Assembly (NCBI RefSeq): GCF_000341395.1
Contig: NC_020304.1
Location: 2,880,001 to 2,912,000, forward strand
Direction of reading: 5' to 3'
DNA: 32,000 bases
DNA from: Desulfocapsa sulfexigens DSM 10523
GTDB lineage: Bacteria > Desulfobacterota > Desulfobulbia > Desulfobulbales > Desulfocapsaceae
Positions 11,577 to 24,430 of the stretch are shown piece after piece. The notes under the pieces were generated by a model that did no database searches, was not told the DNA's origin, and was given only the letters and a program-made list of their open reading frames with translations. The number at the start of each line of letters is the position of its first letter. Positions within the stretch are counted from its first letter, which is position 1. The position numbers were made by a program, and so were the translations under genes.

Positions 11577-12419
11577 CTATCGGTTTAATAGATAGAAAAA
11601 AATACCACCTGCAGCCAGCCAGATATTGGTAATATTGGAAATAGTGATGTTGAGTATAGCGGCGAGTGGTTTTTTACGGCTGAGCAGGGCCAGACATGAT
11701 TTAAATTCGGGCCATGATGTGAGGGAGGCAAGAACCAGGAATCCTATTACTCCTTTTGGCGCTTTAGAATGTTCAGCCGCAAATGTAACCACAGGGTCAA
11801 GAAAATATCCAGAACTAAGCAGGAGTAAGATTGCAGGTATCAGCCAGCGTCTGGCACCCTCATGATACATTTCGTCACTCTCTTCTTCGCCTTCATTCGG
11901 GCGTAGAAAAAAAAGCGGCAGGGTCAGTAACAGCGCCGTAATCAACCAGTATTTGTAATAGGATGTTGGTATGCAGTAGAAACCGATGGCAAGAGTTGCT
12001 GTGCTCAGGATTGTGACAGTGCTGTAGAGCGGTTTGGTTTTCACTGTCTGCCAGGTCATTTTACAAATCACTGCGGCAGTAATCAGAAGAATAGGGTTCA
12101 TGAAATTTGAACCAAGGGGTGTAGATGCGGCAAAAAGGACATCACCGGCAGCAAGACCGACAATAAGACAAAGTGCTTCCGGGCCATTGGTTATGAATCC
12201 TGTGACGGTACCAATTCCTTTAATATGCTTAATGGACTCAATAATAATTTCCACAGACAAGCCGATAAGCATCATCTCAATTATGATTCCGGATGCTCCA
12301 AGAAAAGAGAGCTGGACATTGCCCTGAAAAATCAGACTGCTCCCGCAAAAAAATGCCAGAACCAGAACCCACACCACTAGATCTAAGCGTGTTACTGAAC
12401 TGAGAATAAGCTGTCTCAC
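11577..12419 (-). CDS. Short CaCA-like (Na+/Ca2+ exchanger superfamily) membrane protein
   Basis: 280-aa polytopic protein with two alpha-repeat-like segments: ITNGPE...LGSNFMNPILL and LTSWPE...ISNITNIWL. GTG start overlaps the upstream stop codon (GTGA, 12416-12419). Confidence 0.6.
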   Translation of the reverse strand: MRQLILSSVTRLDLVVWVLVLAFFCGSSLIFQGNVQLSFLGASGIIIEMMLIGLSVEIIIESIKHIKGIGTVTGFITNGPEALCLIVGLAAGDVLFAASTPLGSNFMNPILLITAAVICKMTWQTVKTKPLYSTVTILSTATLAIGFYCIPTSYYKYWLITALLLTLPLFFLRPNEGEEESDEMYHEGARRWLIPAILLLLSSGYFLDPVVTFAAEHSKAPKGVIGFLVLASLTSWPEFKSCLALLSRKKPLAAILNITISNITNIWLAAGGIFFYLLNR

Positions 12420-12667
12420 GGTTTCCGTACCTTTGTCAGAAATGCTTCGATTTTATCTCGATTGAGGAGGATACCGCTGATTTGTCCTTCGCCGTATTTC
12501 AGGGTCGGAATAAACATCACGCCATCTTTAAGAGCTCGCAGAGGGCTGGTTAGTATTTCGACTTCTTCCAGTTCTATGTCGTTCATGTTTGCCAAGAGTT
12601 CATCCAGAACTTTTTTTGCCATATGGCAACGAGGTCAGAGACTTGAGTGGTAAAAAGTGATGGTCAT
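12416..12667 (-). CDS. Thioredoxin/glutaredoxin-fold selenoprotein candidate (in-frame TGA at 12635-12637; active site U-P-R-C)
   Basis: Reading from ATG 12667 gives MTITFYHSSL-[TGA]-PRCHMAKKVLDELL...GVMFIPTLKYGEGQISG... The TGA sits at the first Cys position of a CxxC, right after beta-strand 1. The FIPT cis-Pro loop is present. The tracked ORF (start 12622) lacks beta-strand 1 and the redox centre. Confidence 0.6.
12597..12611 (-). other. Candidate SECIS-like hairpin downstream of the UGA
   Basis: mRNA AGUUC-UGGAU-GAACU: 5-bp stem, extendable by A-U pairs, with a G-containing apical loop at +32 to +36 from the U of UGA. A second small hairpin, UUGCC-AUAU-GGCAA, lies at 12616-12629. Neither was folded computationally. 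Confidence 0.3.
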
Positions 12668-12801
12668 AATTTTCAGTTTATATGAGTTTGTGATAGTTGC
12701 TTTATTGAAATACAAAGGATACTATCAAAAGGAAAGAATGTCACAGAAGATACACTGAAACCCTAAAGCTGTTCAACAAGAGTTTTTTTGTTCCGGGACC
12801 T

Positions 12802-13761
12802 ATGAATTCATATCCTCCTCTGATAATTGTTGATGATCAGCGTTTTCTCCAGCATGATACCGGTGGTGGGGATCATCCAGAAACAGCAGCCAGACTGCAG
12901 GTTATACGCAGATCTCTTAAGTCAAGTGACTGTTATCCGTCTCTCTCTTTTTTGTCACCACAGGCAGCTACCCGCAGTGATCTTACCCGGGTTCACAGTG
13001 AAAACTGGCTCTTTCGTTTTGAAGAATCAGTTCTTGCCGGTCAAACCTATATTGATCATTTCGACAATCAGGTCTGTTATGACTCTTACGATATAGCGTG
13101 CCTTGCTGCAGGTGCCGGAATTTCCGCCATAGATCTCATTGAAGAGGGAAAGGGGGATAACATATTCTGCCTGGTTCGTCCTCCCGGACATCATGCGGAA
13201 CGCAGTGTTCCTTTTGGCTTCTGTTTCTTTAATAATTGTGTGGTAGCCGCCAGATACTGGCAACATAAATACCATAAAAGACGAGTTCTTATTTTTGATT
13301 TTGATGCCCACCATGGTAACGGGATTCAGTCTGCTTTTGAGGAAGAATCTGATAGTTACTACATAAGTATACATGAGCATCCGAGTTTTAGTTACCCTGG
13401 AACCGGGTATGGTGATGAGCACGGAATGGGTGATGGAAAGGGGACCATTCTGAATCTCCCACTTTCGCCAGGGGCGAATGACGGGGATGTGGAAAATCTT
13501 CTTAAAAAAGTTATTTTACCGAAGCTTGAGGAGTGGCAGCCAGAAGCAATTATCATTGCAGCGGGCTTTGATGCTCACATTGCTGATGATATGTCAGGGC
13601 TCCATTACTCCACTGACCTGTATTTTACTCTTGGCCGCCAGGTGAAGTCCTGGGCAAATCGATTTACCAATGGGAAATTGCTTTCCATTTTAGAAGGCGG
13701 ATATGAACTCTCTGTTCTTGGAGATTCCGTTGAGGCATACGTGAGAGGTATACTGGAGTAG
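12802..13761 (+). CDS. Histone-deacetylase-family (AcuC-like) lysine/polyamine deacetylase
   Basis: RPPGHHAE, FDFDAHHGNG and EGGYE catalytic and metal-binding motifs. 319 aa. Confidence 0.9.
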   Translation: MNSYPPLIIVDDQRFLQHDTGGGDHPETAARLQVIRRSLKSSDCYPSLSFLSPQAATRSDLTRVHSENWLFRFEESVLAGQTYIDHFDNQVCYDSYDIACLAAGAGISAIDLIEEGKGDNIFCLVRPPGHHAERSVPFGFCFFNNCVVAARYWQHKYHKRRVLIFDFDAHHGNGIQSAFEEESDSYYISIHEHPSFSYPGTGYGDEHGMGDGKGTILNLPLSPGANDGDVENLLKKVILPKLEEWQPEAIIIAAGFDAHIADDMSGLHYSTDLYFTLGRQVKSWANRFTNGKLLSILEGGYELSVLGDSVEAYVRGILE

Positions 13762-13803
13762 ACCCGGTTATACTAAAATTTAAATCTTTTAAGCGAGGTA
13801 GAT

Positions 13804-14445
13804 ATGTACATTTTACGGCATATGACACCCGATCCTATCACCGTTTCTCCAGACATGCTTCTCCCTGAAGCCAGGGCTCTGTTAAATGACTTTCATTTCC
13901 GCCATCTCCCAGTTGTTGATGGACAGGGACAATTGGTAGGAATACTCACAGATCGTGATCTGCGTTCAGCCTATCCTTCTTCTGTTATCAGCGACAGTGA
14001 AAGACGACTGGTGTATGAACGTGTACAGCAAACATCGGTCTCGGAAATCATGTCCACCGATTGTGTTACACTCGGCACTGATTCAACACTTGACGATGCT
14101 CTCTTTCTCTTTGATAGAGATCAGCCTGGGGCTCTCCCCGTGCTTGATAAGGAGGGTAAAGTGGTTGGTATCTTTTCCATTAGAGACCTCAATGCTGCCT
14201 ACAAAACACTTTTTGGAGTTGGTGAAAAGGGCGCGGTTCTTATTGGTATCCATGATGATGGTAGCCCGACTATCATGACTCGAATTGTGACACTTCTTGA
14301 GCAGGAAAAAATTCCATTCACCAGGGTTCTTCGTATCTTTGATAAAGAGGTGGGAGATACTATTTACCTGAGGATAAATACTTTCAAAATTGCCGCGGTT
14401 CTTGATCTTCTGGAGGAGAACGGTTTTGACGTTAAGAAGGAATGA
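13804..14445 (+). CDS. CBS-pair plus ACT-like domain protein (AcuB-like)
   Basis: Two CBS modules (HLPVVDGQGQLVGILTDRDL and ALPVLDKEGKVVGIFSIRDL) and a C-terminal ACT-like segment. 213 aa. SD GAGG lies 6 nt before the ATG. Confidence 0.85.
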   Translation: MYILRHMTPDPITVSPDMLLPEARALLNDFHFRHLPVVDGQGQLVGILTDRDLRSAYPSSVISDSERRLVYERVQQTSVSEIMSTDCVTLGTDSTLDDALFLFDRDQPGALPVLDKEGKVVGIFSIRDLNAAYKTLFGVGEKGAVLIGIHDDGSPTIMTRIVTLLEQEKIPFTRVLRIFDKEVGDTIYLRINTFKIAAVLDLLEENGFDVKKE

Positions 14446-14525
14446 GCGTTCAGGTTTGTCGGAACCTGGAAGATTGTTAATATACTGTAAATATTGCCGT
14501 AAGGCAGAATGTCCCTGGTGTTTTT

Positions 14526-16634
14526 ATGAGTATCGATACGCTGTTTAACCCGAAAAGTGTTGCGGTCGTTGGGGCCTCTCGAACCGATGGGAAGATTGGT
14601 CATACCATTCTTGCTAATATCATCAGGGGTGGCTTTCAAGGTGCTATTATTCCAATTAACCCTGCAGCCAAAGAGATACTTGGCCTTCCCTGTTTTCCAT
14701 CTCTTGGGGAATGTGGCCAGGAAGTGGATCTCGTGGTGTCAGCCTTACCGCAGTCACTGGTTAAAACAGTGGTTGATGAGTGTCCAAAAGTGAAGGCAAA
14801 AGGCCTGATTGTTATAGCGTCGGGATACCAGGAAACCGGTCCCGATGGTGCCATCCTTGAGCAGGAACTTGTTGAACTCTGTACTCGTCGTGAGCTGAGA
14901 CTTCTCGGTCCGAATTGTCTGGGGTTTATTAATACCGCCAACAATCTCAATGCTTCTTTCGCAGGAGATATGCCGGGTAGCGGTGATGTTACACTTTTTT
15001 CTCAGTCTGGGGCACTCTGCAGCGTTATGCTCGATATGGCCAATGATCGTCATATGGGGTTGGCCAAGCTGGTAAGTGTAGGAAATAAGGCGGATATAAG
15101 CGGTGTTGATATGCTTGCCTATCTTGCAAAGGATGATGATACAAAGGTTATCGTAGGGTATCTTGAAGATATAGTGTCTGGTAAGAATTTTATAAAGGCG
15201 GCAGAAGATGCCGCATCAAATAAACCGGTAATTATTTTAAAATCCGGGACCACTTCCGCAGGACTGAAGGCGACAGTGTCTCATACGGGTATACTGGCTG
15301 GCGCTGATACAGCATATGGAGCAGCTTTTAAACGATCGGGTGTGATACGAGCGGATACCTTTGAGTCTCTTTTTGATTTTGCATCGGCGTTTTCCCTGCA
15401 GCCACTTCCAAAAGGAAATAACGTTCGTATTATCACGAATGCGGGTGGAGCTGGAATTATGGCAGCCGATGCGGTGGAACTTGCTGGAATGAAAGTCCAA
15501 GAGCATGGTCAGAATGAAAGAAAGGCTGCGATTCAGCAACCGCAAAAGATTTTCAAACCTGTTAATCCTGTTGATATACTGGGTGATGTTGATCCTGGTG
15601 TATATGTAACTGCGATAAAAGCTGCTCAGACCGACTCCGATGTTGATGCCATCCTTATTGTCCTGACTCCACAAGCAATGAAGCGTCCTGCAGAAACAGC
15701 CAGTGCCATAGTAACCTGTATTGATGGAACCAAACCGATAGTGGCTGCTTTTATGGGTGGCCATGAGACAACCCTTCTGCGTAAGGAACTCGTTGCTGCT
15801 GGTTTGCCTCTGTATAAATCACCGGAAAGAGCAGTGGCTGCCCTCAAGGCAATGGGTGAATATGCTGCCTGGAAAAAGCGCCCACCACGCACGGTTACCA
15901 GATTTAAAGTAAACAGGCGCAGGGTGGAACGAATTCTTTCACGTCGTCAGCGTACCGGGATGCTTCAGCTTGGTGAGGTGAAGGGGAAAGATGTTCTTGG
16001 TGCCTATGGCTTTCATGTACCGACCGGGGCCCTGGCCTCGACGGCAGAAGAGGCAACGGAGATTGCAGAACGTATAGGATATCCTGTGGCAATGAAGATT
16101 GTATCTCCTGACATTGTCCATAAGAGTGATCTTGGCGGAGTGTTCTTAAACGTTTCCAACAGGGAATCTGCTGAGGACACTTATGACTTGATGACCTTAA
16201 AGATTCGTAAAAAGGTTCCCGGTGCTCGTATTGAAGGGGTGTATGTTGAAAAGATGGCCAGTAAAGGGCTCGAGGTGATCATCGGTATGACCAGAGACCC
16301 CCAGTTCGGCCCCATGCTAATGTTTGGTCTTGGTGGGATTTTTGTAGAGGTAATGAAAGATGTGACTTTTCACCTTGCCCCTATCACCGAACAGGAAGCG
16401 ATACAGATGCTGAAATCCACTAAATCCTACGCAATGCTGCAGGGGCGTCGAGGTCAGAGTGGAGTTGATGTGGTTGCAATAGCTTCGGGTCTGCAGCGAA
16501 TCAGTCAGTTAACGACGGATTTTCCACAGATTTTAGAGCTTGATATCAACCCCTTTATTGTCGGTGAGTTTGGATCCGAACCTGTGGTGGCAGATGCGCG
16601 AATGACATTGGCACCATTACCGGAAGAGAAGTAA
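14526..16634 (+). CDS. ADP-forming acetyl-CoA synthetase (fused alpha/beta, NDP-forming acyl-CoA synthetase family)
   Basis: CoA-binding N-terminus SVAVVGASRTDGKIG, phosphohistidine loop VSHTGILAG, and a C-terminal ATP-grasp domain. 702 aa. Confidence 0.88.
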   Translation: MSIDTLFNPKSVAVVGASRTDGKIGHTILANIIRGGFQGAIIPINPAAKEILGLPCFPSLGECGQEVDLVVSALPQSLVKTVVDECPKVKAKGLIVIASGYQETGPDGAILEQELVELCTRRELRLLGPNCLGFINTANNLNASFAGDMPGSGDVTLFSQSGALCSVMLDMANDRHMGLAKLVSVGNKADISGVDMLAYLAKDDDTKVIVGYLEDIVSGKNFIKAAEDAASNKPVIILKSGTTSAGLKATVSHTGILAGADTAYGAAFKRSGVIRADTFESLFDFASAFSLQPLPKGNNVRIITNAGGAGIMAADAVELAGMKVQEHGQNERKAAIQQPQKIFKPVNPVDILGDVDPGVYVTAIKAAQTDSDVDAILIVLTPQAMKRPAETASAIVTCIDGTKPIVAAFMGGHETTLLRKELVAAGLPLYKSPERAVAALKAMGEYAAWKKRPPRTVTRFKVNRRRVERILSRRQRTGMLQLGEVKGKDVLGAYGFHVPTGALASTAEEATEIAERIGYPVAMKIVSPDIVHKSDLGGVFLNVSNRESAEDTYDLMTLKIRKKVPGARIEGVYVEKMASKGLEVIIGMTRDPQFGPMLMFGLGGIFVEVMKDVTFHLAPITEQEAIQMLKSTKSYAMLQGRRGQSGVDVVAIASGLQRISQLTTDFPQILELDINPFIVGEFGSEPVVADARMTLAPLPEEK

Positions 16635-16717
16635 GGACGAATAGAATATCTCAGAATTATAATTTAATCGGGAAATATAACTTTTCAGTTGTCTTGTTGA
16701 TGAGTTATGAGGGAATT

Positions 16718-18595
16718 ATGGAATACGACGCCAATTGGAAAGAAACCTATAAAGACATGATTAAAACCCCAAAACGGGCTTTGTCACTGTTGAAATCAGG
16801 TCATCGGGTTTTTATTGGAACCGGCTGCGGAGAGCCCACGGTACTCGTTGAGGCAATGACACGAATTGCAGGGAATCTTGCAGATGTGGAAATTGTAGAA
16901 CTCTTAACCAAAGGAAATGCCCCCTATGCCGAGAAAAAATTTGCCAACTGTTTTAAAATCAACTCACTTTTTATAGGCCACAATGTACGCGAGGTAATCA
17001 AAGAAGGACGCGGAGACTATACACCTGTTCTTATGTCCGACATCCCACGTCTTTTTAATTCTGGTCAGTTGCCTCTTGATGTGGCTCTTATTCAGGTTAC
17101 TCCTCCTGACTCCCGAGGAAAAATGAGCCTGGGAGTATCCGTTGACATTGTAAAAAGTGCTGCTGAAAATGCATCTCTTGTTATAGCTCAGGTCAATCCG
17201 CAAATGCCCTGGACCCGCGGTGACAGCCTTATAGATGTCTATGACCTTGATATTCTGGTGCCAGCCGATGTTCCTCTTCTTGAACGTAAATCCAAACCAC
17301 CTCATCCAATCAGTTTGAAAATTGCAGAGTTTGTCGCCGGTCTTGTGCCAAGCGGGTCCACTGTAGAGTTTGGACTTGGGAGGATTCCAGGTGTTGGCCG
17401 TATCCCGCAGGCCGTTATAGGTGCCTTGAAGGACAAGCATGATATTGGCATCCATACAGAACTTATCACCGATGACATTCTCGATTTAATACGGAGTGGG
17501 GTAGTAAGCGGCAATAGGAAATCCACGGATCGGGGCAAAATTGTGGCTAGTTTTTGTATGGGAAGCAGGGAGCTTTACGACTTTATAGATGACAATCCAT
17601 TGTTCTCCTTTCGCCCTACGGAATATGTGAATGATTCAAACATTATTGGCAAGCAGAATCGGATGGTATCCGTGAACATGGCCCTGCAGATTGACCTCAC
17701 GGGGCAGGTGTGTTCAGATTCGGAAGATGGCTTTTTCTATTCTGGAGTCGGAGGACAGGTTGACTTTAACCGTGGTGCTTCTCGCTCCGAAGGAGGGCGT
17801 GCCATTATCACAATTCCATCCACAACAAGTGACGGAGAGTCGCGGATCAGGGTGCATTTGAGCCCGGGTGCCGGTGTTGTTGTGAGCAGGGCGACGGTTC
17901 ATTACATTGTGAGTGAGTATGGAGTGGCCTATCTTCATGGAAAATCTGTTCAGGATCGAACCCTTGCTCTTATCTCCATTGCCCATCCTGATCATCGTGA
18001 ACAGCTATTAAAGGATGCTATTGAAGCCAGGTATATCCGTCAGGATTTTGTGGATGTTGAAGGAAAATTTGTTGTTGCCCCACAGGGTATGATGAAAGCC
18101 ACTTATCTGATGGATAACGGGACAGAATTGTATTTCAGGCCCATTCATCCAACCGATGAACCATTGATGCGCGATCTTCTCTATGATCTTTCCCAGGAAA
18201 CTCTGTACTACAGATTTATGAGTCATAATCAGCATTTCGGGCATAAAGAAATTCAAAATTTTGTCTATGTTGATCATCGTAAGGATGTTGCCATTGTTGG
18301 AACATTGCCAGAGGCCCATGGAGATGATATCGTCGCCGTTGGCAGGTATTACCTGGATGAAAGAAGCAACAGGGCTGAAGTTGCCTTTGTTATCCGGGAC
18401 GAATGGCAGAATAAGGGGTTGGGAACATTTATGTTTAAACATCTTATTACCCTCGCGAAGGCGAGTGGTATTGCCGGGTTCACTGCAGAAGTCTTACGTG
18501 ATAATAAGCGGATGCAGGCGATATTTAATCACTCCGGGTATAAGGTCCAAAGTGCAGTTGAAGAAGGTGTTTATAGCTTTCGGATTGAATTTTAA
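16718..18595 (+). CDS. Acetyl-CoA hydrolase/transferase-family domain fused to a C-terminal GNAT acetyltransferase
   Basis: CoA-transferase motifs IGIHTELITD and GVGGQVDF. GNAT motif A: VIRDEWQNKGLGTFMFKHLI. Start set at ATG 16718 (SD GAGGGA at 16709-16714). TTG 16694 and ATG 16700 are alternatives. Confidence 0.88.
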   Translation: MEYDANWKETYKDMIKTPKRALSLLKSGHRVFIGTGCGEPTVLVEAMTRIAGNLADVEIVELLTKGNAPYAEKKFANCFKINSLFIGHNVREVIKEGRGDYTPVLMSDIPRLFNSGQLPLDVALIQVTPPDSRGKMSLGVSVDIVKSAAENASLVIAQVNPQMPWTRGDSLIDVYDLDILVPADVPLLERKSKPPHPISLKIAEFVAGLVPSGSTVEFGLGRIPGVGRIPQAVIGALKDKHDIGIHTELITDDILDLIRSGVVSGNRKSTDRGKIVASFCMGSRELYDFIDDNPLFSFRPTEYVNDSNIIGKQNRMVSVNMALQIDLTGQVCSDSEDGFFYSGVGGQVDFNRGASRSEGGRAIITIPSTTSDGESRIRVHLSPGAGVVVSRATVHYIVSEYGVAYLHGKSVQDRTLALISIAHPDHREQLLKDAIEARYIRQDFVDVEGKFVVAPQGMMKATYLMDNGTELYFRPIHPTDEPLMRDLLYDLSQETLYYRFMSHNQHFGHKEIQNFVYVDHRKDVAIVGTLPEAHGDDIVAVGRYYLDERSNRAEVAFVIRDEWQNKGLGTFMFKHLITLAKASGIAGFTAEVLRDNKRMQAIFNHSGYKVQSAVEEGVYSFRIEF

Positions 18596-18673: not shown

Positions 18674-19102
18674 ATGGACATTAGCCTGACAACTCCAGCA
18701 TTACTGTTTCCCGCCGTCACATTTCTGCTGGTCGCTTACACCAATCGTTTTCTTGCACTTGGTTCGCGTATCCGTCAACTGCACGATCGATATTTGGAAA
18801 ACCCCAATGATGTTCTTCTTTCTCAGATAAAGAGCCTGCGACATCGAGTGGTACTTATTCGTAATATGCAGTTTTTTGGTGTTGGGGGATTGTTTCTTTG
18901 TGTGTTCTGTATGTTTCTTCTTTTTGCAGGTAATGAACTGGGTGGGAAAATAACTTTTGCTATCAGTTTGATAATGTTACTTGTTTCTCTTGCTATATCC
19001 CTGCGGGAAATCCTGTTGTCGGTGGAGGCTTTGAATCTGGAACTGAGCAGTATGGAGCAGAGTAAACACTCAGGTAAAGAGAAGTTGCATGTAAAACAAT
19101 AA
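18674..19102 (+). CDS. Small membrane protein, DUF2721-like
   Basis: 142 aa with three hydrophobic segments. N-terminal TTPALLFPAVTFLLVAYTNRFLALGSRIRQLH resembles DUF2721 as I remember it. Confidence 0.6.
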   Translation: MDISLTTPALLFPAVTFLLVAYTNRFLALGSRIRQLHDRYLENPNDVLLSQIKSLRHRVVLIRNMQFFGVGGLFLCVFCMFLLFAGNELGGKITFAISLIMLLVSLAISLREILLSVEALNLELSSMEQSKHSGKEKLHVKQ

Positions 19103-19131
19103 CGCTGAGGGGGAAGTGATAAAGGATGCTG

Positions 19132-19629
19132 TTACTGTTTTGGCGAACGGACGGGTAAGGCTCGTCTGTTGCCCCCCGTTCCCCTTTTTAATCTTTTTGT
19201 GACTCCATAGTTAAATCCAAATGCTATGGCCTTGTTGTCCGAGGTTCGTCTGTCGGTCCAGACGTAGGGGGCGCTGATGTTGATTGTTTGTGTCACAACA
19301 TCAATAGACCCTGAATAGTCCTGCCCCTGCACTTTCTTTCCATTACCATAGAGTGATTTGAGCTCGCTGGATGCAGGCATTCTCCAGTCATTGTGCCCGC
19401 CAACTGCAAAGTTTTTGCAATACTCTACGGCCCCGGACCAGTTAATGCTTGAACCGTTGTCGGTTGCAGCCCATATAAGGCCGGTTTTTTCATCCCGTAC
19501 TGTTCCATCGGATAGGGTCTTGAATCGGACATCTGCTGCTCTTGCATTAAAAATAAGAAGGCAGAGCAGGAGATAAAAAAAGGCGCCGGTGATGGATGCT
19601 TTTCTGAGTAGACAGTTGGTACTATTCAT
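19132..19629 (-). CDS. Secreted DUF1566 (Lcl C-terminal, lectin-like) domain protein
   Basis: Signal peptide ending NARA-AD. DUF1566 signature TGLIWA...GHNDWRMPASSELKSLY. Start set at ATG 19629, overlapping the upstream stop codon by 8 nt. The tracked 19671 start lies inside the upstream gene. Confidence 0.75.
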   Translation of the reverse strand: MNSTNCLLRKASITGAFFYLLLCLLIFNARAADVRFKTLSDGTVRDEKTGLIWAATDNGSSINWSGAVEYCKNFAVGGHNDWRMPASSELKSLYGNGKKVQGQDYSGSIDVVTQTINISAPYVWTDRRTSDNKAIAFGFNYGVTKRLKRGTGGNRRALPVRSPKQ

Positions 19630-21223
19630 TGTTCTCTTTTTCCTGTGGTGGAGTAGTGTCAATCTTTCCAAGCGATAGTGGCGGACTCCAGGTTAGCCAC
19701 TTGTCATTCGGATCCCTGTGAAGAACAAAATGTTTGCCGTTGGCAACACGATTTCCCATGTCATCCTTGTCAGGTGTGGAAAAGGAAATGCCACCGCCGA
19801 TAATTGCTGCAACAGATTCTGTGCTGATCCGCATTTCAGTCATAAGTCCTCCTTTAATGCGAAACCCGGTACTGTTCCAGAATTTGGTGTTTTCCCGGAC
19901 AAGATTTACGTAGGGCTCGTGAATGTTGACGTAAATGAGAACATTTTGGCCAGTGGGGGAGAGTTCGTAGCCCGTTGTGTGGCCAACCTGTACCTGACGA
20001 TAATAGACAGGCTTGTTATAGCCAAGAGATCCAAGTCGATCCGTTTCAAGTACCAGATTCAGGCCCGTATTGTCTGTAATATTTACGGGGCGACTGTTAT
20101 GTACTTCAAAGGTACGCGCACTCTTGCCTGTACCTGGAAGAATATTGACGTATGCCCCTTTTATAAGGGTATCAAGATTGGATATTCCTTCGGCGTTAAA
20201 GCGTGCATTTACCGTCCAGAAATAAGCATCTGCACCGAGCAGTGCCTCCATTGATTTGTCGATGTAGGCTGTTGCGTTGACAGTTCGCAAATCACTCTTC
20301 ATTTCAATGTCAGTGATATGACCGATTTTTATACCATTAAAACGGATTTCAGCATCAGGCTGCAGACCATGATCTGCAGAAAAGGTGAGGTGTATTTTAA
20401 TGTCATCTGCCCGAAGGGCATCGTCCATACTGTCGTAGAGTAGAAAAATATTTTTGCTGTCAACTTTTTCACCACCAGTCGGAGTGAAAAAGCTGATGCC
20501 GCCACGTAAAATGCTTTTTATGGAATCCACCTCCATAGAGATTTTGGGGAGATTTGCCTGGAAACGGATACCGCTACTGATAAAAAATCTAGAAAATGAA
20601 GTTACGTGGCCAACATATTGAGGATGGATGAGAAGTTTTGTTTCAATGGTGCCATCGGGTAACAGTCTGTTGGATACAATTTCTCCAACAGCAATTTTTT
20701 TAAAAGAAACAGGAGAGCCAGCTTCCAATGAAACAGAATCTTTATTATGTAGGGTTAAATGAAGTCCAGGAACCCGCATGGAAATAGGAGGAGGGTCTGG
20801 CAGGGCTGTAAATGAATCAGTCTGCTCCGTAGAATTTCCCGGTTGTACTTCAAAGTAACTGCCTTTAATCAGGGTATCCAGGCCTGTGATGCGGTTCATT
20901 GAGATTTCAGGACGAACAACCCAGAAGAGGGTATCTTTGGTTAATTTTTCTCTTGCCTGTTTAACCATCTCTATTTCTGCATTGATGTGTTTCAAATCGG
21001 GACTCACGGTAAAACCTTTAAGCGTTCCCACCGGTAGCCCTTTGAAAAATACCTGAGTTTTTCCCTCCGTGAGCCCATTGGCGTCTTTTATGGCGACGGT
21101 TATCATAATGCCCGATTCCTGATAATCCTTATAGATCAGATAGGCACCGATAAGAATTGCAACCAGTGGAAGTATCCAGATGGGTGAAATTCCGATTTTT
21201 GGTTTTATAATTGGGGTTTCCAT
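19622..21223 (-). CDS. MCE-domain intermembrane transport protein (PqiB/LetB family) with four tandem MCE-like repeats
   Basis: N-terminal TM segment PIWILPLVAILIGAYLIY. Four repeats each carry a (K/R)x(I/L/V)xVG core. Repeat ends alternate: GLDTLIKGSYFEV / NLDTLIKGAYVNI versus ILRGGISFFTP / IIGGGISFSTP. Confidence 0.88.
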   Translation of the reverse strand: METPIIKPKIGISPIWILPLVAILIGAYLIYKDYQESGIMITVAIKDANGLTEGKTQVFFKGLPVGTLKGFTVSPDLKHINAEIEMVKQAREKLTKDTLFWVVRPEISMNRITGLDTLIKGSYFEVQPGNSTEQTDSFTALPDPPPISMRVPGLHLTLHNKDSVSLEAGSPVSFKKIAVGEIVSNRLLPDGTIETKLLIHPQYVGHVTSFSRFFISSGIRFQANLPKISMEVDSIKSILRGGISFFTPTGGEKVDSKNIFLLYDSMDDALRADDIKIHLTFSADHGLQPDAEIRFNGIKIGHITDIEMKSDLRTVNATAYIDKSMEALLGADAYFWTVNARFNAEGISNLDTLIKGAYVNILPGTGKSARTFEVHNSRPVNITDNTGLNLVLETDRLGSLGYNKPVYYRQVQVGHTTGYELSPTGQNVLIYVNIHEPYVNLVRENTKFWNSTGFRIKGGLMTEMRISTESVAAIIGGGISFSTPDKDDMGNRVANGKHFVLHRDPNDKWLTWSPPLSLGKIDTTPPQEKENNE

Positions 21224-21269
21224 AATAGTGTTTTCTGTTAAACGAATTGGGTGATGATGTTAATAACTT

Positions 21270-21869
21270 CTAATTGGCATCCCAGAGGAGACGCGAGTCA
21301 AATGTGAGAGCTGCACTCATGGTACAAACCACAACGGCGGAAAAATATGTTACAGCGGGAGCGGCAATGGTTGAGGTGAACCCTCCAAAGCTTACCAGCG
21401 TTGACATAAGGGCGATGACAAAAATGTCGAGCATGGACCAGCGGCCGATAAATTCTATGAAACGAAACATGGCAATCTTGTGTCGCAATCCTCTTTTCCA
21501 CTTAAAGTGTATTGAGAGCAGGATAATAATCATGCCAATGATCTTAAAGGTAGGCACCAGCACGGAGGCAGTAAAAATGATAAGTCCAATAAAATATTCA
21601 TCCTCGTGAAAAAAGTAGACGATACCGTCCATTATGGTGGAGGATTCCATGGTACCCAGGAAATTAACTCGCATGATAGGTAGCAGGTTTGCCGGGATGA
21701 AGAGGAGTATGGAGGTGATGATCAGGGCCCATACCCGCGTTAAGGAGTGTGGTTTGCGGAAATGGATTTCAGCATTACATCTGGGACAGGTGAGAACTTC
21801 GTTTTTTACAGTTTCTCTGGTCTTGAGTAACTTTCCGCAGTCGTGACAGGACATCAGTCCGGCTTTCAT
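21270..21869 (-). CDS. PqiA/LetA-family membrane protein, second half-size gene
   Basis: Zinc-ribbon CHDCG...CPRCN followed by four TM segments. Start set at ATG 21869, 10 nt after the upstream stop. ATGs at 21890 and 21893 are alternatives. Confidence 0.8.
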   Translation of the reverse strand: MKAGLMSCHDCGKLLKTRETVKNEVLTCPRCNAEIHFRKPHSLTRVWALIITSILLFIPANLLPIMRVNFLGTMESSTIMDGIVYFFHEDEYFIGLIIFTASVLVPTFKIIGMIIILLSIHFKWKRGLRHKIAMFRFIEFIGRWSMLDIFVIALMSTLVSFGGFTSTIAAPAVTYFSAVVVCTMSAALTFDSRLLWDAN

Positions 21870-21879
21870 GGCAGTGGCT

Positions 21880-22524
21880 TTAAATGGCATCATCCATATC
21901 CCGGCTGGAATCGGATCTGATTTGTTCGATATTTTTCCAGAATGTGTCGGGATCCAAAGCTGAGGTAGATGCACGGGTCATAAAAACTAGAAAAACAAAA
22001 CAGAAGAAGCCAATGTTGTAGTCAATGCTGGCAACGCTGATGATCTTGATAATACTGACAAGGAGTGCAATGAGATAGACATCGGGCATACCCCATTCAT
22101 CCATGTGAAGAGCTGTACGGAAAAGAAAGGGGAGTGAACGGCTATAGCGCTGTGTCTTTAATTGCAGGGAAACGGAAAAAAGCAGGCTTAGATTCAGGAG
22201 CGGAAAAAAAACGGAAGTGATAAAAACGAGAACGGCTACAAAATAGTATTTTTGATGGTAAAAGCTCAGGAAAGCATCAAAAATGGAGCCATTTTGAGAC
22301 ATTCCCATTGAGTGTAAGGTAAGAAGAGGCAGGAAGATAGCTGGTATATAGGCAAGAAGGCCACTGATACTGATAGCAAGTACTTTGGTGATTGAATTTA
22401 CTTTTTTATGAAGGAGTACAGTGTTGCAACGGGGACAAAAGAGTTTCTTACCGGGGTGGGCTTCAATCTTTTTAAGAAGCAGATCACATCCGGGACAGGC
22501 TATAATAGTAGTGGTTGCAGTCAT
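21880..22524 (-). CDS. PqiA/LetA-family membrane protein, first half-size gene
   Basis: Zinc-ribbon CPGCD...CPRCN followed by TM segments. 214 aa. Confidence 0.85.
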   Translation of the reverse strand: MTATTTIIACPGCDLLLKKIEAHPGKKLFCPRCNTVLLHKKVNSITKVLAISISGLLAYIPAIFLPLLTLHSMGMSQNGSIFDAFLSFYHQKYYFVAVLVFITSVFFPLLNLSLLFSVSLQLKTQRYSRSLPFLFRTALHMDEWGMPDVYLIALLVSIIKIISVASIDYNIGFFCFVFLVFMTRASTSALDPDTFWKNIEQIRSDSSRDMDDAI

Positions 22525-22724
22525 AAGCTTTACACGGGATCCATATAAATAAGTTCCTGAAAGAATAGCATATTCAAAGCTAAATCTGAAAGAAATATTT
22601 AATCAAATGTCTAATTTTACCAAATAGGGTATATGTTTGATTGACTAGGAAAAAAAGATCTATCGAGCCTGGGACGAGATGGATATCATGTATATTAGTA
22701 AGTGGATTGGTAAAAGAGATCGGT

Positions 22725-23387
22725 ATGATTATACAACAGACAAGCTGTAAACAGTGTGGAATTTGCTGCACTAAAGGAGGGCCGGCACTCCACGGGGCGG
22801 ATATTGATCTCTTGCGGCAGGGATCTATTCCACGAAAGAATCTTATCACCATCCGCAAGGGCGAGTTTGCCTATAATCCTGTCGCAGAGATGGTGCAGGC
22901 TACTCAGTCTGAAATTGTGAAATTGAAAGGTAGTGGGGGAGATTGGACCTGCTGCTATTATGATCCTGAATCACAAGGTTGTAGCATCTACGATAATAGA
23001 CCTCTGGCCTGTGTAATTCTGCAGTGCTGGAATCCTGATGCAACTCTTGCCCTTGTTGAGAAAGATCTCCTTAGCCGCCTCGATATAGTATCAGGTGACA
23101 AGTTTCTAGTGAAATTGATAACAGAGTATGAACTTGCCTGTCCCTTACCCGATTGTGAAAAACTTTCCATTGACCTGCAAAATAACTCTGAATCAATGAT
23201 TGCAAATCTTGAAGATCTTGTGAATCGTGATCTTCAGTTCCGGAATAATGTTGTTGCCGGGTCGGATACAGTTTTAGACGAGGAGATGTTCCTCTTTGGC
23301 AGGCCATTGTTTCAAATAGTTCAGTCCTTTGGTTTACTGGTTTCTCAATATGAAAACCGTCTACGCTTGAAAATGAAGAAATTATAG
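22725..23387 (+). CDS. YkgJ-type cysteine-cluster (CxxCxxCC) protein
   Basis: CKQCGICCTKGGP near the N-terminus, with further Cys (WTCCYY, CSIY, CVILQC). Start set at ATG 22725; the tracked start at 22641 is a TTG. Confidence 0.7.
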   Translation: MIIQQTSCKQCGICCTKGGPALHGADIDLLRQGSIPRKNLITIRKGEFAYNPVAEMVQATQSEIVKLKGSGGDWTCCYYDPESQGCSIYDNRPLACVILQCWNPDATLALVEKDLLSRLDIVSGDKFLVKLITEYELACPLPDCEKLSIDLQNNSESMIANLEDLVNRDLQFRNNVVAGSDTVLDEEMFLFGRPLFQIVQSFGLLVSQYENRLRLKMKKL

Positions 23388-23683: not shown

Positions 23684-24430
23684 TTACCAGTTTTTACGAT
23701 CTATTACGGCACCCTGGGTGGAGAGAGTGACTTGTTCAACAGGAACGCTTTTTCCTGCACGCTCTATGGCCTGGCTGATGATACCGTTCATAGATGAACA
23801 GCAGGGAACTTCCATAATAAGAATGGTGAGGCTGTTGAGATTACAGGTGGCAATGATTTCACTGAATTTCTGAACATAGCTCTCTGCATCGTCAAATTTA
23901 GGACAACCCATCATTACAACTTTTCCGGTGAGGTAATCCAGCTGAAAATTTGGAGCGGAAACGGCGCAGCAATCGGCGGCAACCAATAAATCTGCACCCT
24001 GAAGGAATGGAGCTGTGGGAGGTATGAGGCGAATCTGTACCGGCCAGTGGGTAAGTGATGAGGCACCACCTCCAGCAGCCATTGCTATGGGTTTGTTGGC
24101 TGTCTGGCATGGCGTCTGGGGGGTAAAGGTCTGCAACCGCGCGGAAGGACATCCTGAAGTCTTTGGTTTATCTACAGCAGCTCTCTGTTTAGCCAGATGT
24201 TCTTCAACCGCCTCCTCATCAAAGTCTTCAGCTTCACGCTCGATGATTTTGAGTGCGCCGGTGGGGCATGATCCAAGACAGGCACCAAGACCGTCACAAA
24301 GCTTATCCGAGACCATCTTTGCTTTTCCGTCAATAATAACAAGAGAACCCTCCGCACAGTCAGGAACACAGAGACCGCAACCATTGCAAAGTTCTTCATC
24401 GATTTCAATAATTTTTCGCATAATTTTCAT
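23684..24430 (-). CDS. 4Fe-4S dicluster ferredoxin-domain protein with a Cys-rich C-terminal domain
   Basis: CNGCGLCVPDC and CDGLGACLGSCP cluster motifs. The C-terminal domain carries ADCCAV, GCPKFDD and MEVPCCSS. Confidence 0.8.
   Translation of the reverse strand: MKIMRKIIEIDEELCNGCGLCVPDCAEGSLVIIDGKAKMVSDKLCDGLGACLGSCPTGALKIIEREAEDFDEEAVEEHLAKQRAAVDKPKTSGCPSARLQTFTPQTPCQTANKPIAMAAGGGASSLTHWPVQIRLIPPTAPFLQGADLLVAADCCAVSAPNFQLDYLTGKVVMMGCPKFDDAESYVQKFSEIIATCNLNSLTILIMEVPCCSSMNGIISQAIERAGKSVPVEQVTLSTQGAVIDRKNW

Follow-up and report, generated by a model that had tools for sequence, protein, structure and literature searches.

Which proteins does an acetyltransferase act on when its gene lies directly behind that of an acetyl-CoA-forming enzyme, and when genes for a deacetylase and a nucleotide sensor stand beside both? 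A four-gene locus of Desulfocapsa sulfexigens DSM 10523 raises this question. It lies in the 32,000-nucleotide stretch that we analysed (positions 2,880,001 to 2,912,000 of contig NC_020304.1; hereafter the window) and encodes a zinc-dependent deacetylase (gene 1), a homologue of the Bacillus regulator AcuB (gene 2), an ADP-forming acyl-CoA synthetase (ACD; gene 3) and a fusion of a CoA-transferase with a GNAT acetyltransferase domain (CoA-transferase::GNAT; gene 4). The answer we favour, and consider somewhat probable, is that the operon encodes a Pat-like, AcuB-gated circuit of reversible protein-lysine acetylation over two enzymes of acetyl-CoA and short-chain acyl-CoA metabolism. This answer starts from domain identities, catalytic integrity and genomic linkage, which sequence comparison establishes. 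The genes and domains concerned are as follows.

12802-13761, + strand: gene 1, deacetylase gene, 319 amino acids (aa); proposed eraser (open reading frame (ORF) map, Pfam)
13804-14445, + strand: gene 2, AcuB homologue, 213 aa; proposed adenine-nucleotide sensor gating the deacetylase
14526-16634, + strand: gene 3, ACD, 702 aa (Pfam set)
16718-18595, + strand: gene 4, CoA-transferase::Pat-type GNAT fusion, 625 aa (Pfam, NCBIfam)
16745-18052, + strand: predicted family-I CoA-transferase domain of the fusion, 4-hydroxybutyrate/butyryl-CoA:acetate type
18104-18580, + strand: predicted Pat-type GNAT domain of the fusion, protein lysine acetyltransferase type; proposed writer

Predicted components of a proposed circuit

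The gene 4 product contains the Pfam domains AcetylCoA_hydro and AcetylCoA_hyd_C followed by a C-terminal GNAT domain, in line with its existing automatic annotation as 'bifunctional acetyl-CoA hydrolase/transferase family protein/GNAT family N-acetyltransferase'. The closest solved relative of its CoA-transferase domain is Thermus TtCoAT (9vag, 411 bits), and the domain was also aligned with 2oas. The catalytic glutamate (Glu248, within HTE) and residues G345-G346-Q347 of the GxGGQ motif are invariant in 20 aligned homologues, and the glutamate together with GGQ or GGH is kept in 81/81 fusions from Desulfobulbales. The match to TIGR03948 reaches 266 bits, below the cut-off of 674.8, and indicates membership at the family level only. 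These features argue that the N-terminal part of the fusion is a catalytically competent family-I CoA-transferase.

The GNAT domain aligns with that of PatZ over 162 residues with zero gaps (E 2e-19), and its significant matches in the PDB are all of the Pat type (PatZ, SlPatA, Rv0998 and MsPat; E 2e-19 to 2e-11). Below 1e-10 there are Pat-type proteins only, the next match has an E value of 0.005, and diamine acetyltransferases follow at about 0.2; the search, which extended to E≤10, returned no chain named AcuA. The NCBIfam model of mycobacterial Pat (NF058543) matches at 8e-26, at the domain level only. Both the catalytic glutamate (Glu554 in AEVAF, aligned with AEFAV of PatZ) and the acetyl-CoA loop (Q564-x-x-G567-x-G569, where QNKGLG is aligned with LKGLGLG) are conserved. 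The C terminus of the fusion is therefore best described as a predicted Pat-type protein lysine acetyltransferase domain, the putative writer. Conserved lysines of the fusion (K268 and others) were considered as markers of an acetylation site and discarded as family-generic and uninformative. Neither the five-type scheme of bacterial GNAT acetyltransferases (PMC8556138) nor a 2025 structure-based survey of PatZ (PMC12184503) includes the CoA-transferase::GNAT architecture, and a literature search, with subscription journals outside its reach, found no experimental paper on such a fusion.

The putative eraser, encoded by gene 1, matches Hist_deacetyl (PF00850) at 2.6e-87 and carries the motifs RPPGHH (residues 126-131), DFDAHH (166-171), GFDAH (255-259) and EGGY (298-301), with D168, H170 and D257 as zinc ligands and Tyr301 of EGGY as the catalytic tyrosine. 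Its best solved relatives are both catalytic domains of HDAC6 and the short bacterial enzymes 5ji5 and 5zmp; class I deacetylases are missing from its best 60 PDB matches, and HDAC10 and the acetylpolyamine amidohydrolase APAH occur among the weaker ones. A survey of bacterial deacylases describes RPPxHH together with EGGY as the signature of a 'robust deacetylase' with a small foot pocket, treats RPP as a general deacetylase determinant for lysine and polyamine substrates alike, and places B. subtilis AcuC in class I, cluster 2c (PMC11532494). The gene 1 product has every feature of the class II, cluster 1 'robust' deacetylases (HH, D-H-D, Tyr, RPPxHH and EGGY), and we predict it to be a class II (HDAC6/HdaH-like) zinc-dependent deacetylase with an acetyl-specific pocket, not an orthologue of AcuC.

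In the gene 2 product, Pfam detects two CBS domains and misses the ACT part, which is covered by an alignment over residues 5-210 with the B. subtilis AcuB structures 9s4v and 9qs7. Further matches are to 9s4w, to Thermus TTHA0829 (5awe) and to Geobacillus AcuB. Adenine nucleotides and Ap4A are ligands of AcuB, which in a manner that depends on its nucleotide state contacts AcuC through the ACT domain and inhibits it (PMC13121692, PMC13039410); residues R33, H34 and R51 are needed for Ap4A binding and are conserved among AcuB proteins (PMC13039410). These three residues occupy the same positions in the gene 2 product, and they and D128 are kept in 57-59/59 homologues from related loci. The protein is accordingly annotated here as an AcuB homologue, consisting of a Bateman CBS pair and an ACT domain.

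Gene 3 has the Pfam set CoA_binding, Succ_CoA_lig, Ligase_CoA_2 and ATP-grasp_5 in fused alpha-beta order. Its score is 518 bits with the ADP-forming 4-hydroxybutyrate-CoA ligase 8wzu and 312 bits, over the full length, with E. coli PatZ. In the alignment, His253 of ATVSHTGILAG falls within the phosphohistidine loops of 8wzu, 9y43 and 4xyl; at this position PatZ has a 4-residue deletion and no histidine, and SHTG is kept in 97/98 ACDs linked to a fusion. The protein thus resembles the solved ACDs of Nitrosopumilus (8wzu) and archaea (4xyl), sharing the domain set and order of 8wzu, the phosphohistidine loop and a conserved HK[ST]D motif, and is by sequence a catalytically intact ADP-forming acyl-CoA synthetase. 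It differs from them in that its gene is locked to that of an acetyltransferase. Post-translational control of ADP-forming acyl-CoA synthetases is not reported in the searchable literature.

These comparisons uphold much of the initial annotation, which had recognized an HDAC-family deacetylase with an intact HH / D.H / GGY site, a CBS-pair and ACT protein corresponding to AcuB, an ACD that keeps its phosphohistidine loop (VSHTGILAG) on the fold of the Pat regulatory domain, and a CoA-transferase::GNAT fusion. Its equation of the deacetylase with AcuC and of the GNAT domain with AcuA has to be withdrawn, given the class II and the Pat-type matches, respectively. Its picture of the cluster as Pat taken apart survives as mere analogy: ACD is closer to 8wzu than to PatZ and keeps the histidine that PatZ has lost. 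The 32-kb window encodes neither an AMP-forming Acs, the target in the Acu and Pat systems, nor any other AMP-binding enzyme.

Three known systems come close to the locus. Like B. subtilis AcuABC/AcsA, it encodes a writer, an adenylate sensor of Bateman and ACT domains, and a zinc deacetylase beside an acetyl-CoA-forming enzyme, and its AcuB homologue keeps R33, H34 and R51. In contrast to AcuABC, however, the predicted writer is of the Pat type and is fused to a CoA-transferase, the eraser belongs to class II rather than class I, and the neighbouring enzyme is an ADP-forming ACD in place of the AMP-forming AcsA. With Pat/PatZ (YfiQ) of Salmonella and E. coli the locus shares the GNAT domain, aligned without gaps and with its catalytic glutamate and acetyl-CoA loop, a large acyl-CoA-binding domain N-terminal to it, and the association with a protein of the ACD fold. 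The PatZ N-terminal domain binds acyl-CoA and ATP, activates the GNAT domain and shapes the Acs-binding pocket (PMC12184503). In PatZ this domain is an ACD-like domain in cis that lacks the histidine, whereas here it is replaced by a family-I CoA-transferase with intact residues, and ACD is encoded by a separate gene with the histidine kept. By its proteins, the locus would work like both AcuABC and Pat while being a member of neither.

The third system is that of Thermus, in which TtCoAT (TT_C1083; structure cited as 9VAG) is the major substrate of the GNAT acetyltransferase TT_C1711, is deacetylated by the metal-dependent deacetylase TT_C0104 and is tuned by the NAD+-sensing ADLP (bioRxiv 10.1101/2025.10.31.685773). 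It has in common with our locus a homologous CoA-transferase, a GNAT writer, a metal-dependent eraser and a metabolite-sensing accessory protein. The Thermus writer is a separate protein, unlike the writer fused in cis here, and the Thermus sensor is an inactive alanine dehydrogenase, unlike the AcuB-like protein here, to which a coupled ACD is added.

Conservation in Desulfobulbales and distant fusions

Scanning GTDB species representatives yielded 80 loci with the fusion, all from Desulfocapsaceae or Desulfobulbaceae, the closest being an uncultured Desulfocapsa sp. at 95% identity. Gene presence was counted only where the flanking sequence sufficed. In 70/70 assessable loci the fusion is immediately preceded by ACD (an automated count gave 69; L051, missed there, does carry ACD), an AcuB homologue is present in 53/64 and a deacetylase in 37/56. 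Among the 56 loci, 37 have ACD, AcuB and the deacetylase, 10 have ACD and AcuB only, and 8-9 have ACD only. L002, L060, L064, L066, L068, L069, L072 and L074-L077 keep AcuB immediately upstream of the ACD-fusion pair but have no deacetylase gene next to it.

ACD and the fusion are separated by a median of 15 nt, and by at most 38 nt in 63/75 loci, with an 11-nt overlap in six. Dozens of species-level genomes, at 58-95% identity, keep the gene order with differing flanking genes, which argues that the four-gene arrangement is not due to chance. In the Desulfoprunum clade the ACD-fusion pair sits after cdaA-cdaR-glmM, indicating that this two-gene core moves as a unit. Among cultured species, Desulfofustis glycolicus DSM 9705 has the full four-gene cluster and Desulfoprunum benzoelyticum DSM 28570 the ACD-fusion pair only. 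These counts bear out, as a conserved unit, the combination of acetyl-CoA enzymes, acetyltransferase, deacetylase and adenylate-sensing CBS protein that the initial annotation had described.

Beyond Desulfobulbales, a search of 50%-identity cluster representatives found dozens of full-length CoA-transferase::GNAT proteins at 31-61% identity. In these distant fusions the GNAT catalytic motifs persist, and the CoA-transferase glutamate and GGQ are lost in many lineages, HTE being replaced by HTQ, HTD, HTV or HSG. A metagenome scan added 77 full-length fusions that are 40-75% identical to the window protein, with 40-61% for the independent lineages. A complete ACD adjoins 23 of the 77; it may lie upstream, downstream or in divergent orientation, and one locus has a tandem pair. 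A deacetylase of the class I or class II type adjoins 11-12. Clustering of neighbouring ORFs further placed an AMP-forming Acs with the canonical Pat/AcuA target motif LPKTRSGKIMRR within 3.5 kb of the fusion in eight metagenomic loci, and shorter acyl-CoA synthetases with PRNPTGK lie near it in three. Distant fusions thus recur beside genes for acyl-CoA-forming enzymes and HDAC-type erasers, as would be expected, judging from these neighbourhoods, of a Pat-like writer encoded beside its clients.

Linkage to ACD shows a weak trend with the state of the CoA-transferase, which is intact versus lost in 23 versus 0 ACD-linked fusions and in 46 versus 8 of the rest. The one-sided Fisher test gives p = 0.049, or 0.22 if L164, with a partial ACD at the contig edge and a degenerate CoA-transferase motif, is counted as an exception. 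A variant of the test with p = 0.009 took in five verrucomicrobial loci, some of them near-duplicates, and its figure should not be used.

Some distant proteins unite writer and eraser. The single polypeptides CoA-transferase::GNAT::HDAC carry a class II deacetylase domain in P0156 and a class I, AcuC-like one in P0172, for which HDAC1/2/3 and HDLP come first among the matches. These triple fusions are 925-1013 aa long (P0156, P0172 and L083-L086, for example L083:8001-10871) and have lost the CoA-transferase glutamate and GGQ. Those of the P0156 type form a large family of Verrucomicrobiota, with Rubritalea, Coraliomargarita and Haloferula among its carriers. Nothing relevant to writer-eraser fusions was found in the searchable literature.

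Other arrangements were noted around the fusion family. P0129 and P0138 extend the CoA-transferase::GNAT layout by about 330 aa at the N terminus, with a 4Fe-4S dicluster domain in the added part, which suggests a redox-linked variant of the predicted writer. In L106 (2269-3801), an AcuC-like deacetylase with an N-terminal response-regulator receiver domain directly follows the fusion, with a canonical Acs close by; in P0207, a receiver domain is fused to a CoA-transferase without GNAT. L101 (2656-8824) has two tandem ACD genes, the fusion and then an AcuC-like deacetylase, with a canonical Acs about 2.6 kb downstream. P0168, a candidate fusion of ACD with a CoA-transferase, was set aside, as its junction is of low complexity and frameshift-like and the protein is probably an artefact of assembly or gene calling.

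Operon signals and flanking genes

The four genes lie on the same strand with gaps of 42, 80 and 83 nt, within the 42-83 nt that the initial annotation had given. The last gap is counted from the ATG at 16718, which has a GAGGG Shine-Dalgarno sequence 5 nt upstream. The TTG at 16694, which would give a 633-aa version of the fusion, is an unlikely start given this GAGGG and the length of homologues (625-626 aa). The ATG of the AcuB homologue is also preceded by a Shine-Dalgarno sequence (GAGG), and no terminator-like site was found in any of the three gaps. Because the genes share a strand, short gaps, Shine-Dalgarno sequences and gaps free of such sites, we propose that they form one operon. 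Upstream of it lies the following region.

12623-12801, no strand: divergent intergenic/promoter region between a small - strand ORF (12416-12622) and the deacetylase gene

This region contains a sigma-70-like sequence, TTGAGT-16-CATAAT (12643-12670, + strand), which is a consensus match only; the scan gave fewer sites than shuffled sequence and is therefore uninformative. Rfam families had zero matches across the whole window. Immediately 3' of the AcuB stop codon, a 9-bp hairpin without a U-run (UUCAGGUUU...AACCUGGAA, 14449-14470) may serve in attenuation or RNA processing at the point where the regulatory genes of the operon give way to the enzymatic ones.

The small ORF (12416-12622, - strand; 68 aa) is divergent from the deacetylase gene, has a counterpart in at least L001 and overlaps by 4 nt the gene of a Na_Ca_ex-like membrane protein (11577-12419, - strand), which adjoins the cluster in other Desulfocapsa and Desulfofustis loci too. 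On the other side, the next genes after the fusion in L001, L002 and L055 are one with a CxxCxxCC domain and a divergent 4Fe-4S ferredoxin-like gene. The same two genes lie about 4 kb past the fusion in the window (22641-23387, + strand, and 23684-24430, - strand). The intervening segment (18674-22524), with ORFs for DUF2721, an Lcl_C domain, PqiB and two PqiA domains, looks like an insertion relative to those three loci. Far upstream, a 443-aa ORF (314-1645, + strand) has no Pfam match at E≤0.001.

The proposed circuit and its rivals

In the circuit that we favour, ACD and the CoA-transferase would make up an acetate/short-chain acyl-CoA node encoded by the operon. The CoA-transferase domain would take the place of the dead ACD-like domain of PatZ and, as an enzyme or as a sensor, link the GNAT domain with the acyl-CoA pool. 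At high acetyl-CoA, the acyl-CoA-forming enzymes of the node would be acetylated by the GNAT domain and thereby switched off; the likeliest targets are the translationally coupled ACD, the CoA-transferase itself or both, together with any AMP-forming Acs whose gene lies elsewhere. Activity would return through the deacetylase unless AcuB held it back at low energy charge; AcuB would read AMP, ADP, ATP and Ap4A, and its nucleotide state would decide whether it binds and blocks the deacetylase. We infer the AcuB-deacetylase interaction and the sensing role of the CoA-transferase from work on Bacillus AcuB/AcuC and on PatZ. As for the target, the universal, near-overlapping adjacency of the ACD gene makes ACD a plausible candidate, and the acetylation and deacetylation of the homologous TtCoAT in Thermus provide a precedent for a writer with a CoA-transferase as client.

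Several observations weigh against this circuit. An adjacent deacetylase is missing in 18-19 of the 56 species with the ACD-fusion pair, of which 10 keep AcuB; AcuB may therefore have another partner, or the eraser may be encoded elsewhere. The known partner of AcuB, Bacillus AcuC, is of class I and the deacetylase here is of class II, so the interaction would be an extrapolation across classes. We infer the co-transcription of the four genes from the layout of the locus, and the 9-bp hairpin lies just behind the AcuB gene. The searchable literature yielded no report of an ACD being acetylated enzymatically, and the conserved lysines of ACD (K23, K188, K233, K239, K403, K524, K533 and K611), considered as markers of an acetylation site, are all the usual catalytic or structural ones, generic to the family. 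The acetylation site of the Thermus CoA-transferase, Lys5, is Thermus-specific and, in the alignment with 9vag, is not conserved in the fusion. Finally, the genes of the verrucomicrobial triple fusions stand alone, with neither an ACD nor a CBS gene next to them, indicating that such writers can act on distant targets.

This last point and the silence of the searchable literature on ACD acetylation would also fit a global Pat-like regulator that is merely co-located with ACD. The fusion and the deacetylase would then act on AMP-forming synthetases or other proteins encoded elsewhere, and ACD and the CoA-transferase would share an acetyl-CoA homeostasis regulon, neither being acetylated. The classical target of Pat-type GNAT domains is the PX4GK lysine in AMP-forming synthetases, and a canonical Acs does lie near the fusion in the eight distant loci. 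What such a regulator leaves unaccounted for is the adjacency of ACD, which holds in 70/70 Desulfobulbales loci with near-overlapping reading frames and recurs in unrelated lineages in several orientations, as well as the proven status of a homologous CoA-transferase as an acetyltransferase substrate in Thermus; we regard mere co-location as rather unlikely, if a serious contender. The same tight coupling of the ACD and fusion genes is typical of the subunits of one complex. In a second alternative, which takes up the initial annotation's picture of Pat taken apart, ACD would bind the fusion and serve as an acetyl-CoA/ATP-sensing regulatory subunit of the GNAT domain, a Pat in trans. ACD matches the PatZ regulatory domain in fold along its entire length (312 bits), and that domain binds acetyl-CoA and ATP and shapes the pocket for Acs (PMC12184503). 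However, ACD resembles real ligases more than PatZ and retains the phosphohistidine, the fusion has its own large N-terminal acyl-CoA-binding domain, and about two thirds of the distant fusions have no ACD nearby, so that this arrangement seems improbable to us.

Small-molecule chemistry, in which the GNAT and HDAC-family pair would act on a polyamine, an amino acid or a compound of the acetoin pathway, with the CoA-transferase supplying the acyl-CoA donor, is the least probable of the explanations and one to which we give very little credence. Both superfamilies do include such enzymes, the diamine acetyltransferases and the acetylpolyamine amidohydrolases, and HDAC10 and APAH appear among the weaker matches of the deacetylase. 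Yet the significant matches of the GNAT domain are confined to Pat-type protein acetyltransferases, with diamine acetyltransferases only at E of about 0.2, relatives of the fusion adjoin an Acs with the target lysine motif, and an AcuB homologue is present. RPPGHH and EGGY in the deacetylase point the same way, but RPP fits lysine or polyamine substrates and does not discriminate between them (PMC11532494).

A bolder form of the acetylation circuit, which we put forward tentatively and think possible rather than probable, is that CoA-transferase::GNAT constitutes a sixth architectural type of bacterial lysine acetyltransferase, with the CoA-transferase, live or as a pseudoenzyme, as a Pat-like acyl-CoA sensor. 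In Desulfobulbales, together with an AcuB-gated class II deacetylase, it would switch ACD by acetylation, the first control of this kind for an ACD.

The components are familiar, but specialists would be surprised by how they are combined and how widely, by the gradation from live enzyme to pseudoenzyme and by the fusions of writer and eraser. The fusion family offers a natural series from a live enzyme to a pseudoenzyme sensor, plus writers and erasers on single polypeptides, and its cultured carriers (Desulfofustis glycolicus, Desulfoprunum benzoelyticum and Rubritalea species with the triple fusion) make the hypothesis directly testable. If the proposed circuit is real, it would introduce an acetyltransferase architecture that current classifications lack, place the AcuB energy sensor outside Firmicutes and pair it with a different class of deacetylase, and extend control by acetylation to ADP-forming synthetases and CoA-transferases, enzymes central to energy-limited anaerobes.

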